The position numbers were made by a program, and so were the translations under genes. Shown piece by piece: positions 7,878 through 13,067 of a stretch of DNA of 64,000 nucleotides. The notes under the pieces are model-generated. The model saw nothing but the letters and a program-made list of their open reading frames with translations, was not told the DNA's origin and made no database searches. Every line of letters starts with the position of its first letter. Within the stretch, counting starts at the first letter, position 1. Source of the stretch: Curvularia clavata (Eukaryota). The stretch is taken from contig CP089276.1 in NCBI GenBank assembly GCA_023920165.1, positions 2,356,001 to 2,420,000 of the forward strand. Direction: 5' to 3'.

Positions 7878-8938
7878 TTAGTCGAACAGACCGAAGCCCA
7901 TGTCCTCATCCTCAGACTCCTCCTTCTCCTCCTCCTTGGCCTCCTCCTTGGCGGCAGGAGCGCCACCGGAAGCAGCAGCAGCGCCGGCGGCGGGGGCGGC
8001 GGAGGCATACTTGTCGGGGTTGGCGATGCGGTCCTTGAGCTCGGCAATCTCCTCCCACTCGTAGTCGGTCTCGATGGCGACGGCGAGAACCTTCTTGTAA
8101 GAGTTGACGATGGAGTGCATGACGGAAGGCAGGGTGGGGTAGCTGAGAGCCAGGGAGATGGTGGCAATGGTGGTGATGGCGGTAGAGAAGGTCTTAAGGA
8201 GCTGGTCCTCGCTGATGTCGAGAACGGAAGCATCGAAGGTCTGACCGTTGTCGTAGATCTGGTAGATACCCATACCGTAGGTGAAGGGAGAGATGTTCAA
8301 CAAGTTGAGCAGGGTAGCCTCGGAAGCTCCGACCTTGTTGCCAGCCTCAATGAGCTTCAACTCGGTGGTAATTTCAATGGTACCACGGGCAATCTTGGTG
8401 GGGACACCGAGAGCCTGGAAGAAAGAGGTCTTTCCGGGTTCCATACCACTGCCTTGTTGTCAATTGAATGTTCTATGCGCATGTCTCAGAGATAGTCCTT
8501 ACGTGTTTCCGGCGGGGATGAAGACATCACCGGGGGCGACGGCACCAGCACGAGCGGGGGCAGCGACACGGTTGGAGAGGATCTTTTCACGGATTTCCTT
8601 GAGGTCACCGTTGGTGAAGACGAAGCCAACGTTACCTATGCCATTGTTAGCGCTATGCTGCGCGTAATATGTCCATGAAGACGGGAAAACATACCCTTGA
8701 CGTGGGGAAGAAGGCGGTCGTACTCAGGGTAGTCGCCGACAAGGCCCTTCAGAGCACGGCGGACCATGGTGTTCTTTCCCATGAGGACGACACCCTCGCC
8801 GCGCAGCGACTGGCGGATCTCGTGCATCTGCTGGGACGAGACATTGTCGACGGTGACAATGAAGATGCTCTTGTACTCCTTGAGAAGGGAGTCGAGCTTC
8901 TCGAAGTAAGCGGCCTTGGATTCTTTCTTGCCCCCCAT
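7878..8938 (-). CDS. RPP0: 60S acidic ribosomal protein P0 (uL10), 3 exons
   Basis: [49 protein letters not shown] and the C-terminal [14 protein letters not shown]; introns at about 8636-8694 and 8449-8502. Confidence 0.98.
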
Positions 8939-9145: not shown

Positions 9146-10821
9146 ATGGCTGCACCTTTTCAGTGTCTTATTGCACGGAGCTCTCAAGATGCAGGCGACT
9201 GGACGCTTTTTGGCGCAAGTGGTTCAAAGCTAGTGGTCCAGGCGAGCAGCGGAGCGACAGCAACATGGCCAGACCAGCAAGCGCAGGCTGAAGTGAGTAC
9301 CAGGAATTGTAATTTTTAAACAGGATTTGGTTTGGCTGTCTGGTTCTGCTACAAAGGGTGAGTTGCACACGTCGCTGACACAAGCAGGAGCAGCAGAGTA
9401 GTGATTCAGAGGAACGTCCGGGAAAAAGAATCAAGTTGGAACAACCAAAAGAGCAAAAGTCCAACTTCTCCGATCTAATACTGTCCCACAATGGGCAGTA
9501 CTTGATCGGTGTTACCGGCGAGGACAAGTGTATTCGAGTCTTTCAAATCAACCCTCAGGGTCAACTCGAGCAATTAAGCGAGAGGTAAGCAAGATTGGAG
9601 GCAGAAGACTGTTCAGTGCACACGCTGATATCGACAAGATGCATGTCAAGGAGGCCTTCTTCAATCACTGTTACGTCTGATGACACAACAATTCTGTGTG
9701 CGGACAAGTTTGGAGACGTGTATGCTCTGCCACTTCTTCCTTCTCCAGAAGACTACATCGTGGAGCAGCCTGATACACCAGCAGTCGAATCAGAGCAAAA
9801 GGACTGGAAGCCTTCTGCTACTACTCTTACCGTCCACTCTGGTCGGAATCGGAAAACGCTGGAGGAGCAGCTCAAGCAAAAGGCAAAGGGTATAGCCAAG
9901 TCTAAAGAACCTATGCGCTTCAAAAACGAGCTCCTCCTTGGACATGTTTCCATGCTTACAGACGTCGCCTATGCCAACGTGGATGGCCGCAGCTACATCA
10001 TAACCGCTGATCGCGACGAGCACATCCGAGTCTCAAGAGGTCAACCACAAGCCCATATCATTGAGGGTTTCTGCTTTGGTCACGAGGCCTTTGTGAGCAG
10101 GCTGTGTCTTACGTCATCCGGTCTGCTTGTCTCCGGCGGCGGAGATGACGACTTGTTTGTATGGGATTGGCAGACTTGCTCTTTGAAAGAACGATTGGCG
10201 ATTCGAGATCTTGCCTTTGGTCATCTCCAGGAACGCAACGTGGTCGCAATGGATCTGGATCGCGCGAGTTACAAGGTCGCCGTCTCGGGCATATGGGCTT
10301 TGCCAAATCATGGAAACAAGGTGCGTGTGTTTTTCACCTAATCCCTTGGAACCTGATATCTGACTTTTGACAGGCCGAGAAAATCATCGTAGCATGTGAA
10401 GGCATTCCGGCACTCTTCGGCTTTTCAATAGGAGGATCTGCACCTGGATCATATGTCTCACTGAACGGCAACGCACTAGACGTTGCTTTGATTGCGGGGC
10501 CGGCAGGCTCCGTTCGGATGGTGGTCTCAATAGACAACATTCATAAACCAGGATCGACAACGGAGAAGCGTGAAGATCAAGTAAGCGGCCTGCCTCCACG
10601 TGTGCTGAGTGTAATATCTAACATGGCAGCAGGTACCTGGCTTACAGTGTTTCTCTCTGCAGCCCCAGGGTTCGTGGCAGGAAGACGCAGGCCTTGCAAA
10701 GACATTGGAGGGTTTAGGTCGCAGTGGAAACACCACGGGCGATGACAGAGACGGACAAGCTCTCCGGAGCATGCTGTACAACATCGAGAACCTCCGGAAG
10801 CGTCCAGGCGCGGACGATTAG
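9146..10821 (+). CDS. TRM82: tRNA (guanine-N7)-methyltransferase non-catalytic WD40 subunit
   Basis: ADKFGDVY, LLGHVSMLTD, IITADRDEHIRVS and C-terminal LYNIENLRKR; ATG 9146, three introns, stop 10819-10821. Confidence 0.9.
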
Positions 10822-11787
10822 GTAGCATTCCTGCGAGACATTTGGCCGGGAGATAATGATAGATGTTGCCCGCGGGGCCGACACCAAGAAAGAAAGTAGA
10901 CCGTAATGAGTGCTCGCCTCTCAGGGCTATGATTACTTCATGACTTGCGCGCCCAAGCTGTGTGGGCATATAGCCCGATGGGTCCAATGGATACGGCTGC
11001 CGAGGCCTCGAGACGGCCGGAGTCCCGTCCCCTGGTGAGCGTCGCGGCAGTTCCAGTCTTTGAAAGCAGAGATTCGCGGCTGCGGCTACGTGGGTCTAGC
11101 CGCCCTCCGATTTCTAAGATGGCATGCAAGACACCGCGACGTGCCGATGGCGTACATAGGCCGACTTTTTTTCTTCCCCTTGCCGCAAAAAGCTTCTTTG
11201 ATCTGACGTCTGCTGCATCTGGAGACGAGGCTGCATCCAACAATCCTGTTTGCCTTTTCACCTGCACGCGGAGAATCTTGGTCGGCACAATTCGACATTG
11301 GCTAGGCTTGGTCTTTGTCCACGACTGAATAATACACCCCCCACTACGCCTCGGCTCGCCATCATCGCCCAAAACATTGCGGAGCCCCCGAAACTACATA
11401 CTAAGCCAGCGGCTCACTAATTGTGGCCTCTGCTGAGTCCATACTAGGATCGCCCTTCCAGCGCCTTCTCCCTTGTCTTGTTGTTGTCACTTAAGACTCC
11501 CGTACGGCGCTACACACAGATCGTCATTCCTCAAACCCCCCCCATCCATCCCACCTTGATTCCGCACACGACCCACATCCACCGCCAACTCTTGCACACT
11601 ACACTACACGCGATCCCTCGCACACGCCGCCAAAGTGTTCGCATCAATCTTTCGAAGGGCCACATCGCCTCGATCACTCTCCTTGTTCTCCGTGCCCATC
11701 GCTGCTGCTGCATCGCATAACCAGCGCGTGTCACCTGTAGCGGGGCTTTCGACTGCTTCAAGTTTTTCAAAAGCACAAGCGCGGAAC

Positions 11788-13067
11788 ATGCACTCAAAAC
11801 TAGTCAGTAAGTAATGTCCAGATTTCTATGGTAAGAACAAGAGCTAACGTGTTTTAGTTATTGGGTGAGTTTGCGACTGGCTACGGCACCGTTTTCTTGC
11901 TCGAATACAATCTAACGTTTACAGCTCTGGGCCAGCGGGCCACACCGCAGCTATCTATGCTGCACGAGCCGACCTGAACCGTAAGATACCTCCCTAAGCA
12001 TTTTTTTCAACGCTGACAGCGCGCAGCCGTCATGTACGAGGGTTTCATGGCTCTCGGCATCGCAGCCGGCGGTCAGTTGACTACCACGGACGAAGTTGAG
12101 AACTTTCCGGGTTTCAAGAAGATTGGCGGAGGAAAGCTCATGGTCAGTAACTACATGAAAACAGAACAAGCCAACAAACGCTAAAAAGTAGCAGGAGCAA
12201 ATGCGCGAGCAATCAGAAGCCTGCGGTACCGAAATCATTTCTCAGACCGTCGCCAAGGTTGACCTGAAGTCGCGTCCCTTCAAGTACTGGTTACACCCCA
12301 TGGGCGATGACGAAGAAATTGAGGAAGAAGAACATACTGCTGATGCCATCATCGTCGCGACTGGTGCAAAGGCAAGGAGGTTAGACCTCAAGGGCGAGGA
12401 CAAGTACTGGGGCAACGGCGTGTCCGCATGCGCAGTATGCGACGGCTCTCTGCCCATGTTCCGCGACCAACCCCTCGTCGTTATTGGAGGTGGAGACTCG
12501 GCAGTAGAAGAGGCATTGTACCTCACCAAGAAGGCGAAGAAGGTCACCGTTCTCGTCCGACGAGACAAGCTACGAGCTAGCCGAACAAACGCCCGCCGAT
12601 TGACAACCCATCCCAAGATCGAGGTCATGTTCAACACCAGCGGTGTTGAGATCAAGGGCGAGGAGAAGCCCAACGGCCTCATGACACACTTGGTGGTCAA
12701 GAACAATGTCACCGAGGAGCAACAGACACTGGAGGCCAAGGGCCTGTTTTACGCCGTTGGACACGACCCTGCCACCGCGCTATTCAAGGGACAGCTCGAT
12801 ATGGACGAGGACGGCTACCTGATTACCAAGCCTGGTGAGGGTCTTACCAGTGTCGAGGGTGTCTTCGCCGCTGGTGACGTTCAAGACAAGCGATACCGCC
12901 AGGCCATCACCAGTGCAGGATCCGGCTGCATTGCTGCCCTCGAGGCCGAGAAGTGGCTCGCCGAGCGCGACGACAGCGTCAGCAACGAGCTCGAAACCGA
13001 GAACCAGGCCGAGAAGTCTCAGACCAACGGCGTCGTTCCCGAGTACCGCTCCAACCCTCTTCTGTAA
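11788..13067 (+). CDS. TRR1: Thioredoxin reductase (low-molecular-weight type), 5 exons including a 7-nt microexon; possible GUG-initiated longer isoform from 11635
   Basis: Spliced N-terminus [40 protein letters not shown], active-site [33 protein letters not shown]. Confidence 0.96.

Follow-up and report, generated by a model that had tools for sequence, protein, structure and literature searches.

We report that TRR1 of Curvularia clavata, the gene for a thioredoxin reductase (TrxR), probably serves two compartments from a single mRNA: by leaky scanning, ribosomes would make a GUG-started mitochondrial form of 407 residues as well as the AUG-started cytosolic form. The features behind this proposal, namely an upstream extension of the TRR1 frame, a GTG within it and an ATG-free leader, had been pointed out in a preliminary description of the window (the whole stretch of DNA analysed, 64,000 nucleotides long) and are confirmed in the sequence. 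The frame is open from the ATG at 11788 back to 11560, where a TGA bounds it. On the + strand an ATG at 11147 is followed by none until 11788, and this gap of 641 nt is the longest without an ATG on that strand of the 64-kb window, the next longest measuring 526 nt. The GTG lies in a favourable context (gccgccaaaGTG / gccgccaaaGTGtt at 11635-11637), and the 51 codons that it would add contain 5 Arg, 1 Lys and no Asp or Glu, are rich in Ser and Ala, and end in ARN, with Arg at -2 from Met 11788. The only near-cognate codon between the TGA and the GTG is an ACG at 11608, which has T at -3 and unconserved surroundings. It had also been stated that the track of open reading frames misses the extension since intron 1 closes the frame; the closure is indeed found at 11814, and comes so early because exon 1 has just 19 nt. 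Coordinates are collected in Table 1.

Table 1. Features of the TRR1 locus, in positions of the window, with the evidence for each
Feature	Position	Strand	Evidence
Transcribed TRR1 5' leader, free of AUG in all frames	11196..11787	+	earliest contig end taken as 5' limit, not a mapped start
In-frame TGA closing the TRR1 frame upstream	11557..11559	+	sequence
Conserved initiation context CCGCCAAA, -8 to -1	11627..11634	+	18 non-ATG sequences
GTG, proposed near-cognate start of the long isoform	11635..11637	+	sequence, relatives, contigs of four runs
51-codon N-terminal extension, putative mitochondrial presequence	11635..11787	+	sequence, relatives
Main AUG with A at -3; exon 1 of standard 356-residue TRR1	11788..11806	+	sequence, transcript contigs
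Exon 2, a 7-nt micro-exon	11858..11864	+	transcript contigs: joint 11806 to 11924 with TTATTG between the sides, 4/4 runs
Exon 3	11925..11980	+	transcript contig joints, sequence
Exon 4	12027..12142	+	transcript contig joints (GT..AG, cut +1), sequence
Exon 5, CAVC redox centre and NADPH-binding domain, stop TAA 13065-13067	12195..13067	+	translation, domain matches

We propose that the TRR1 mRNA, with its leader of ~590 nt devoid of AUG, would be read in two ways. A minority of scanning ribosomes would start at the GUG at 11635, whose conserved context is strong (CCGCCAAA-GUG, A at -3), and initiation there would give the 407-residue protein. Its first 51 residues, positively charged and acid-free, would carry the enzyme into mitochondria, and a processing peptidase would probably cut next to the conserved Arg two residues before Met, leaving a mature mitochondrial enzyme that would hardly differ from the cytosolic one. 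Those ribosomes that continue beyond the GUG would find no other AUG until 11788, which has A at -3, and would there begin the cytosolic enzyme.

TRR1 is a five-exon gene encoding a fungal low-molecular-weight NADPH thioredoxin reductase, with a standard protein of 356 residues. Its closest named relatives carry a thioredoxin reductase annotation, and exon 5 matches the pyridine nucleotide-disulphide oxidoreductase domain (PF07992, E 1.5e-35, together with PF13738 and PF00070). Exon 5 also matches TIGR01292 over model positions 61-300 of 300 (E 8e-84), with a score of 280.9 bits that lies under the cut-off of 343 bits because the last exon was scored alone and unjoined (290 of the 356 residues). 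CAVC is read directly in the exon-5 translation, while IIGSGPAGH spans exons 1-3 after splicing and is present in relative P0002 too; we take the former to be the CxxC redox-active centre and the latter the N-terminal GxGxxG FAD-binding motif. In relative P0003, PF07992 begins at residue 56, which places the extension outside the enzyme domain, and a Pfam and NCBIfam scan of the 57-residue extension returned no family.

The earlier suggestion that one gene gives rise to a cytosolic (AUG) and a mitochondrial (GUG) TrxR is well supported by conservation among relatives, import and leaky scanning themselves being inferred. The comparison comprised 20 related Dothideomycete loci and the window (21 sequences); as the retrieval query held part of the extension, '20 loci' is not to be read as a frequency, and the sequences are phylogenetically related, not independent. 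Lack of frame conservation in close relatives was one outcome that the preliminary description had named as counting against it; instead, the extension remains in frame at all 20 loci, where an NTG occupies the same place in a conserved Kozak-type context and changes are mostly synonymous. All but roughly 50 of the 80 loci were viewed. Among the other loci viewed, L022, L036, L065 and L066 have stops just upstream, and the upstream frames of L043 and L044 are open yet unlike presequences. L061 was left out of all counts: it has no homologous motif and looks like a different lineage, the CTC there having been force-matched.

Across the 21 sequences, the codon matching GTG 11635 is CTG in 14, GTG in four and ATG in three, its second and third bases being invariant; elsewhere in the same sequences the two codons are rare: of the other Leu codons only 8 in 104 are CTG, and of the other Val codons only 4 in 64 are GTG. 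Within each of at least four sub-clades the start position holds two or all three of the residues M, V and L, and loci L006 and L009 have identical extension peptides, yet one begins with CTG and the other with GTG. The context CCGCCAA(A) is nearly invariant across the 18 non-ATG loci, where positions -8 to -2 are kept in 16-18 sequences (C in 16 at -8, C in 17 at -7, G in 17 at -6, C in 16 at -5, C in all 18 at -4, A in all 18 at -3 and A in 16 at -2), and conservation is gone from -9 outwards. The three loci that start with ATG have T at -3, a weak context, so ribosomes could pass there too; the main ATG has A at -3 in 21/21. The agreement among relatives is far beyond chance. We also considered a hairpin 3' of the GTG that would boost non-AUG initiation and found none: the RNA downstream of the GTG has a minimum free energy of -13.9 kcal/mol, a stability equalled or exceeded by 145 of 200 shuffles (z +0.62).

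The extensions share a layout in which a conserved basic N-terminal core is followed by a variable Ser/Thr/Ala/Pro/Gln linker and by a conserved Arg two residues before Met. An Arg at -2 of the processing site (the R-2 rule) is typical of presequences cleaved by MPP. Here an Arg two residues before Met occurs in 20 of the 21 sequences, where it is encoded by CGC, CGG, CGA, AGG or AGA; that CGN as well as AGR codons are used indicates that selection acts on the protein rather than on the RNA. All 21 extensions are rich in Ser, Ala and Leu, with a net charge of +4 to +8 and no or one acidic residue. By itself, the composition of the extension is mildly unusual and makes a weak argument for a presequence, and we do not rest the case on it: among 2027 stop-free 51-residue stretches drawn from all six frames of the window as background, 72 are likewise acid-free with at least six basic residues, and 14 of these match or exceed the extension in hydrophobic moment as well. 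Measured over 11 residues, that moment peaks at 0.62 in the window, about one standard deviation above the background mean (0.49, sd 0.14), and 0.45-0.88 in relatives. After the basic core come a further conserved motif (R-x-L-R-S..L-P) and an Ala-rich stretch of moderate hydrophobicity, with a Pro that is invariant (21/21); processing elsewhere, or sorting to the intermembrane space, is therefore possible. A peroxisomal PTS2 or ER signal was also considered and set aside, as inspection of the extension by eye revealed no PTS2-like pattern and a short hydrophobic core.

It may be that the extension is translated from GUG or CUG and yet is not a matrix presequence, serving instead as a two-part intermembrane-space signal, as some other sorting or membrane-tethering signal, or as a regulatory extension. 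The evidence for translation and for purifying selection is silent on destination, the amphipathicity score of the window peptide is unremarkable, the conserved Ala-rich stretch does have its moderate hydrophobicity, and yeast Trr1 has been reported in an intermembrane-space proteome (PMC3518125, as far as the part consulted goes). That hydrophobic stretch, however, spans ~13 residues and is shorter and more polar than expected of a typical stop-transfer segment; an NADPH/FAD enzyme of this kind has clients in mitochondria (thioredoxin, peroxiredoxin) and none known in the secretory path; and the basic, almost acid-free peptides with their Arg before Met have the usual look of cleaved presequences throughout the set. 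We consider a non-matrix role unlikely, and retain a cleaved mitochondrial presequence as the preferred reading of the extension.

Transcripts that span the GTG were found in all four runs, each from a different study. Spliced contigs, whose RNA origin was deduced from their spliced joints, begin at 11196 (X2), 11209 (X15), 11219 (X1) and 11515 (X10) and are colinear through 11806 into later exons; contigs without any of the four introns (GT..AG ends) extend over 11196/11209/11219-11806 and have the GTG unaltered at 11635 in the four runs. The upstream neighbour gene has contigs of its own, which end at 11025-11072 and are separate from those of TRR1. As to a transcription start downstream of the GTG, which the preliminary description had named as evidence that would count against it, the spliced contigs run across 11635 and none in the four runs begins between 11635 and 11788. 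At least part of the TRR1 mRNA thus holds the GTG, with an ATG-free leader of ~420-440 nt before it. In relative P0002 (95% identical), a transcript-derived open reading frame that is spliced at introns 1-3 reads through the extension. The absence of ATG from the leader is not due to chance: its 592 nt (11196-11787) hold none where 7.15 were expected, and none of 2000 first-order Markov simulations was free of ATG. Nor does the extension hold an ATG, in any frame, in any of the 21 sequences (summed expectation 10.0).

These data also bear on how the two isoforms would be shared out. Both could exist and be apportioned mainly by alternative transcription starts, a long mRNA giving the extended protein and a short one, starting downstream of 11635, the cytosolic protein. 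Contigs show neither transcription starts nor isoform ratios, which leaves room for a shorter mRNA giving the cytosolic form alone; the main spliced contig of X10 begins only at 11515, a separate low-depth contig covering 11371-11542; and among the dual-localised synthetase genes of Cryptococcus some are described, in the part of PMC7049704 drawn on here, as backing up start-codon choice with alternative transcription starts. Against a main role for such starts stands, beside the lack of any contig beginning between the two codons, the fact that leader and extensions are free of ATG in every frame, and that the three ATG-started relatives pair a weak upstream context with a strong downstream ATG: an ATG-free interval and a weak upstream ATG are features expected if ribosomes must scan to a second start. 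Alternative transcription starts as the principal means of sharing seem to us distinctly improbable, and leaky scanning past the GUG would remain the favoured mode.

The extension also evolves in the manner of a coding sequence. Its length varies from 126 to 201 nt among relatives with the frame kept throughout, and the gaps between L008 and L013, for example, are of 3, 3 and 3 nt. Over 44 columns, entropy at codon positions 1, 2 and 3 is 1.26, 0.82 and 1.54, the third position being the most variable, and dN/dS is 0-0.58 in the 14 pairs, of 15, for which it could be computed. Three close pairs together show 19 synonymous versus two nonsynonymous codon differences (L006/L009, 8 versus 0 of 41 codons; L016/L018, 5 versus 0 of 44; L015/L016, 6 versus 2 of 44). 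In the same close pairs the 140 nt upstream are 73-82% identical and have 9-15 gaps, mostly not multiples of 3; this upstream comparison is without the distant pairs WIN/L002 and L003/L004, whose alignments were too short. Judged by these substitution patterns, the peptide of the extension is under purifying selection, with the boundary at the start codon. An untranslated leader whose frame is open by chance, and whose conservation stems from an RNA or DNA element, would agree with the weak evidence from the composition of the window peptide (72 of the 2027 background windows), but it sits badly with the kept frame, the variable third position and the excess of synonymous change, as well as with an Arg that persists through CGN/AGR swaps, a sharp fall in conservation upstream of -9 and the lack of stable structure after the GTG (z +0.62); we hold it to be very improbable. 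That the mitochondrial form comes from an upstream ATG in an alternative exon, or that the GTG is an assembly error for ATG, is scarcely credible. Rare isoforms are indeed dropped from contigs, and in Aureobasidium some annotations place the start at an in-frame ATG lying 17 codons before the CTG (P0016). Yet the contigs of four runs follow the genome colinearly over ~11200-11806, reading GTG at 11635 and showing no joint anywhere in the leader. An in-frame ATG further upstream in the open frame is absent from all 21 sequences, and in four of them (L005, L008, L009 and L039) a stop interrupts the frame 4-15 codons upstream of the NTG, the interval holding neither ATG nor near-cognate codon. 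A mitochondrial form started at the GUG of the leader itself thus stays the preferred reading.

The nearest known case is Trr1 of Saccharomyces cerevisiae, for which the relevant part of Monteuuis et al. (2019; PMC6582344) predicts an N-terminal extension with a non-AUG start and, with it, the gain of a mitochondrial signal (MT-NTE); it is there one of 18 candidates chosen for strong 'MTS gain', and was detected in the mitochondrial fraction. The idea is the same as the one proposed for the window: in an enzyme of one family, otherwise cytosolic, a mitochondrial signal would be added from an upstream in-frame near-cognate start. Yeast also has a dedicated mitochondrial paralogue, TRR2; in the present case, conservation extends across a fungal class for the start codon, its context and the peptide alike. 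TRR2 is described as a separate gene for the mitochondrial thioredoxin reductase, similar to our case in that a low-molecular-weight TrxR reaches mitochondria to serve mitochondrial thioredoxin. It arose by gene duplication and has a conventional AUG-started presequence, whereas here one gene would serve both compartments. In plants, dual localisation of NTR comes about by alternative AUGs or transcripts, and we know of no non-AUG start involved in the case of NTRA/NTRB. The proposed arrangement of one gene of an NTR-type enzyme for both compartments would nonetheless be shared with Arabidopsis, where NTRA and NTRB are each listed in both cytosol and mitochondria in the section used of a review (PMC7539121).

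Similar architectures have been documented for other proteins. Fungal aminoacyl-tRNA synthetases with two starts, termed DualAUG and DualNCC (Wallace et al., 2020; PMC7049704, in the part drawn on), likewise combine a weak-context AUG or a near-cognate codon, a targeting sequence and an AUG in strong context, and weak AUG and near-cognate codons have been swapped repeatedly between fungal lineages, as CTG, GTG and weak-context ATG are here; they belong to other protein families, and the word 'thioredoxin' does not occur in the main text of that paper. Yeast Gpx3/Hyr1 is, according to the portion of PMC8069373 used, another redox enzyme with a mitochondrial pool obtained through a non-AUG N-terminal extension, but it is a different enzyme, and its extension has 18 residues, targets the intermembrane space and is stress-induced. 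The literature searched yielded no paper that describes, for filamentous fungi, a thioredoxin reductase with a non-AUG or dual start, the yeast Trr1 listing alone being found, and TRR1 or cys-9 could be listed in Wei et al. (2013, JBC), on start-codon stringency in N. crassa, or in the supplement of PMC6582344; the main text of Ivanov et al. (2017; PMC5487733) contains neither 'thioredoxin' nor 'mitochondri'. A non-AUG extended Trr1 is, then, already listed in yeast, and the conserved case in Dothideomycetes looks new.

Filamentous fungi studied so far are described as having one thioredoxin reductase gene together with a mitochondrial thioredoxin and a mitochondrial peroxiredoxin. For N. crassa, the consulted part of a 2025 preprint lists a single TR beside TRX3 and a peroxiredoxin, these two being mitochondrial, with a mitochondrial TR apparently absent. 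Our proposal, if true, explains the 'missing' mitochondrial reductase of single-TRR fungi: a GUG- or CUG-started presequence, conserved yet unannotated, would be a concrete answer at least for Dothideomycetes, a class with many plant pathogens and extremotolerant fungi. In the Sordariomycete F. graminearum, TRR-GFP expressed from the native promoter has been described as uniformly cytoplasmic and the enzyme called cytosolic. A minor mitochondrial pool is hard to see in such imaging.

It is possible, if on the whole doubtful, that near-cognate initiation on a single TRR1 mRNA is the general means of supplying reductase to mitochondria in filamentous ascomycetes without TRR2, extending far outside Dothideomycetes. 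Which start a lineage uses (CUG, GUG or weak-context AUG) might then act as an evolutionary dial for its ratio of mitochondrial to cytosolic enzyme, and the yeast Trr1 extension might be what remains of this ancestral arrangement after the TRR1/TRR2 duplication. A profile search with the extension gave at least 13 matches among 8000 candidates, all named ones being Dothideomycetes (Friedmanniomyces, Aureobasidium), and another gave 12 matches among 1.84 billion cluster representatives; both are limited as to spread beyond Dothideomycetes, since the AUG is taken as the start in most gene models and N-terminal variants are lost from view behind cluster representatives. For translation biology, the locus offers an unusually clean comparative example, in which CTG, GTG and ATG swap while the context is fixed and the interval is ATG-free. 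For the named orthologues in databases (~356-360 residues) the annotated start is the downstream AUG, and predictors consequently rate the enzyme as non-mitochondrial.

We confirmed that the GTG at 11635-11637, proposed as a near-cognate start of the thioredoxin reductase gene TRR1, lies on the mRNA in four public sequencing runs from four studies, since contigs of all four match the window across 11635 and carry the GTG unchanged. From the GT..AG joints we infer that the runs are RNA. Contigs lacking all four introns start at 11196 (run X2), 11209 (X15), 11219 (X1) and 11515 (X10) and are colinear with the genome to 11806; all include the GTG, and none begins between 11635 and 11788. The 5' limit of the leader is set by these contig ends, which fix no transcription start, and a shorter mRNA may also exist. 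Over 10900-12500 the only departures of the contigs from the window are at 11310, 11502 and 12320 and in a C-run at 11536-11543, which has eight C in the window and one base fewer in contigs of all four runs. This mismatch may stem from the assembly, from homopolymer miscalling or from a difference between strains; as it lies upstream of the stop at 11557, it leaves the frame of the extension unaffected.

Consecutive forward-strand ATGs at 11147 and 11788 (the main ATG) bound the longest ATG-free run in the window (641 nt; second longest 526 nt), and the TRR1 leader of about 590 nt lacks AUG where 7.15 would be expected (none of 2000 simulations was ATG-free). The preliminary description was accurate in reporting no ATG from about 11149 to 11788 and a TRR1 frame open back to 11560, where the in-frame TGA at 11557-11559 precedes it. 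Its 51-residue extension also holds: from the GTG, in the context gccgccaaaGTGtt, to the ATG run 51 codons for a peptide with five Arg, one Lys and no Asp or Glu, ending ..A-R-N before Met, so that an Arg stands two residues ahead. Upstream, contigs from 10900, probably of the gene at 9589-10745 (+) in the ORF list, which may encode a WD-repeat protein as read by eye, end at 11025-11072, so that some 125-170 nt are left as TRR1 promoter. The ORF list also holds a neighbouring gene at 7878-8459 (-) with an acidic C-terminal tail of the kind typical of ribosomal P0/P proteins.

Exons of TRR1 from the main ATG to the stop codon
Feature	Position	Strand	Basis
Exon 1	11788-11806	+	spliced contigs, four runs
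Exon 2, 7-nt micro-exon TTATTGG	11858-11864	+	spliced contigs, four runs
Exon 3	11925-11980	+	spliced contigs, four runs
Exon 4	12027-12142	+	spliced contigs, four runs
Exon 5, stop TAA	12195-13067	+	spliced contigs, four runs

The micro-exon, which has a short intron on either side (11807-11857 and 11865-11924), could easily be overlooked by gene finders; the 11806-to-11924 joint with its letters in between was found in all four runs. The coding length of 356 codons is that of most named thioredoxin reductases from Pleosporales and other Dothideomycetes among the protein matches, of which Stagonosporopsis and Boeremia (Didymellaceae) are the closest named relatives; by these matches the window belongs to a Pleosporales-like Dothideomycete. 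The last exon, 290 of the 356 residues, contains the CAVC centre and aligns with PF07992 and, over model positions 61-300, with TIGR01292 (E 8e-84; 280.9 bits, under the 343-bit cut-off). The extension is located outside the enzyme domain and matched no family in Pfam or NCBIfam.

A first search with a 57-residue stretch yielded P0002, a transcript-derived ORF with 95% identity in which introns 1-3 are spliced and the extension is read through. With P0002 as the second query we obtained long protein models with a homologous extension from Stagonosporopsis, Boeremia, Hortaea, Aureobasidium, Friedmanniomyces and many unnamed assemblies, together with 80 metagenome loci. The extension is recognisable in 20 of these, a number that is not a frequency estimate, as the query included part of the extension and so enriched the set for it. 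Conservation of the frame and of a near-cognate start, on which the earlier proposal depended, was found: all 20 loci keep the frame and have an NTG at the matching codon. Several loci (L001-L005, L010 and L019) are cDNA-like, with the spliced IIGSGP motif directly after Met and a leader of 119-545 nt ahead of the start site, so the NTG is on the mRNA in relatives too.

Across the window and the 20 loci the matching start codon is CTG in 14, GTG in four and ATG in three sequences, its second and third bases being invariant. Elsewhere in the same sequences CTG makes up only 8 of 104 other Leu codons and GTG 4 of 64 other Val codons, CTC and GTC prevailing, so conservation at the start position is not ordinary Leu or Val conservation. 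The extension peptides of loci L006 and L009 are identical, their 41 codons having eight synonymous and no nonsynonymous differences, yet the start codons are CTG and GTG, respectively. Among the proteins, four or more sub-clades mix M, V and L at the exact start position, with two or all three residues in each (for example, M in P0006, V in P0007 and L in P0008; or M in P0014 and P0025, V in P0035 and L in L017). In the ATG clade with DNA (L015, L016, L018), the ATG lies at most one codon from the CTG of the nearest relatives, L008 and L013. At each position from -8 to -2, CCGCCAA is matched by 16-18 of the 18 non-ATG sequences, and A at -3 by all 18; these bases include would-be third codon positions, were the stretch coding, and conservation is absent from -9 outwards. 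According to PMC7049704, a purine at -3 is what distinguishes a strong context, in fungi and animals alike.

No in-frame upstream ATG was found in any of the 21 sequences, and four loci (L005, L008, L009, L039) have an in-frame stop 4-15 codons upstream of the NTG with no ATG or near-cognate codon in between. The sole other upstream near-cognate in the window's open frame, ACG at 11608, sits in an unconserved stretch with T at -3. In some Aureobasidium pullulans gene models (P0016, 95 member sequences) the protein begins 17 codons ahead of the conserved CTG, at an ATG in the same frame. This ATG is absent from the related locus L006 (2824-2910), and in L009 a stop precedes the GTG by 5 codons; the upstream ATG is therefore lineage-specific and may or may not be part of the mRNA.

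Judged by sequence comparison, the frame retention and synonymous bias of the extension are unlike those of an untranslated leader. Extensions range from 126 to 201 nt and are always in frame, mean column entropy is 1.26, 0.82 and 1.54 at codon positions 1, 2 and 3, and Nei-Gojobori dN/dS is 0-0.58 in 14 of the 15 pairs with computable dS. Among differing codons of three gap-free close pairs, two of which include L016, 19 are synonymous and two nonsynonymous. The extensions of L008 and L013 differ by gaps of 3, 3 and 3 nt. In the same pairs, the 140-nt stretch that precedes the context is only 68-82% identical and has 8-15 gaps, mostly not multiples of 3. We consider translation of the extension from the NTG very likely.

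All 21 encoded peptides are basic (net charge +4 to +8), with at most one acidic residue each. They share an N-terminal core, F-A-S-x-F-R-R followed by R-x-L-R-S..L-P (Pro invariant) and an Ala-rich stretch, then a variable Ser/Thr/Ala/Pro/Gln linker and a conserved end, ..R-(N/K/R/S), directly before Met. All but one of the 21 sequences have this Arg two residues ahead of Met, and it is kept through the codons CGC, CGG, CGA, AGG and AGA, which argues for selection on the protein. A basic, acid-poor peptide with Arg at -2 has the usual look of a cleaved mitochondrial presequence. The charge pattern of the window peptide is common to 72 of 2027 background windows and is weak evidence alone; its hydrophobic moment is about one standard deviation above background.

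In none of the 21 sequences does the extension contain an ATG in any frame (summed expectation 10.0), the main ATG has A at -3, a strong context, in all 21, and the three ATG-started relatives have T at -3, a weak one. Together these features make leaky scanning the best-supported way in which ribosomes would be shared between the two TRR1 starts: some would begin at the NTG and make the long form with its presequence, and the rest would scan on to the main AUG and make the standard form. A stabilising hairpin downstream of the GTG was looked for in the window and none was found. Alternative transcription starts may contribute to the sharing. The arrangement in TRR1 is the one that PMC7049704 describes for dual-localised fungal proteins, in which a weak AUG or near-cognate codon is followed by a targeting sequence and then a strong AUG, the first start having changed repeatedly from weak AUG to near-cognate codon or back. 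That the translated extension also acts as a mitochondrial presequence, with leaky scanning dividing the two forms, seems to us reasonably probable.

In budding yeast mitochondrial TRR2 is a separate gene, as the preliminary description stated and the cited literature agrees, whereas here a single TRR1 is proposed to serve both compartments. This proposal of cytosolic and mitochondrial enzyme from one gene is supported by transcript cover and by the conservation of frame, start codon and context. Yeast Trr1 is itself listed in PMC6582344 among proteins for which a non-AUG extension is predicted to add a mitochondrial signal, and mitochondrial fractions were found to contain it; non-AUG mitochondrial isoforms are reported for Gpx3 (PMC8069373) and several synthetases (PMC7049704), and Arabidopsis NTRA and NTRB are each described as serving cytosol and mitochondria. 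This kind of isoform is therefore already known, and the TRR1 extension would be a further, conserved case. In our literature survey we found no description of a non-AUG mitochondrial thioredoxin reductase isoform in filamentous fungi. A 2025 preprint credits Neurospora crassa with a single TR alongside mitochondrial forms of thioredoxin (TRX3) and peroxiredoxin, and states that it 'seems to lack a mitochondrial TR'; in Fusarium graminearum, FgTRR-GFP was interpreted as cytosolic.

Named database models, of 356-360 residues, begin at the downstream AUG, even in Hortaea and Acidomyces clusters containing ATG-started extended forms, so that an ATG at the upstream site does not seem to save the extension from being left out in annotation. 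Such Met-started forms at the conserved site are P0013 and P0030 (396 and 412 residues, from Logan assemblies), whose 90% clusters also contain Hortaea werneckii and Acidomyces richmondensis models from NCBI that have 359-360 residues and start at the downstream Met.

Further afield, the open frame of locus L075 (1-209) runs upstream to the contig end and encodes a basic peptide with no acidic residue, and the protein model P0134, with a more divergent mature N-terminus (MHTKVVIIGSGPAAH..), retains an extension of the K-L-F-S-S-A-F-R-R type; both hint that the extension may reach past the sampled clades. L061 (1-342) is a TRR transcript contig of another fungal lineage (mature N-terminus ..AIYLARANLEPVM); 84 codons ahead of its standard Met it has an in-frame ATG, followed by an Arg/Leu-rich, presequence-like stretch not homologous to the window extension. 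It could represent an independent solution, with an AUG start, to the same task.
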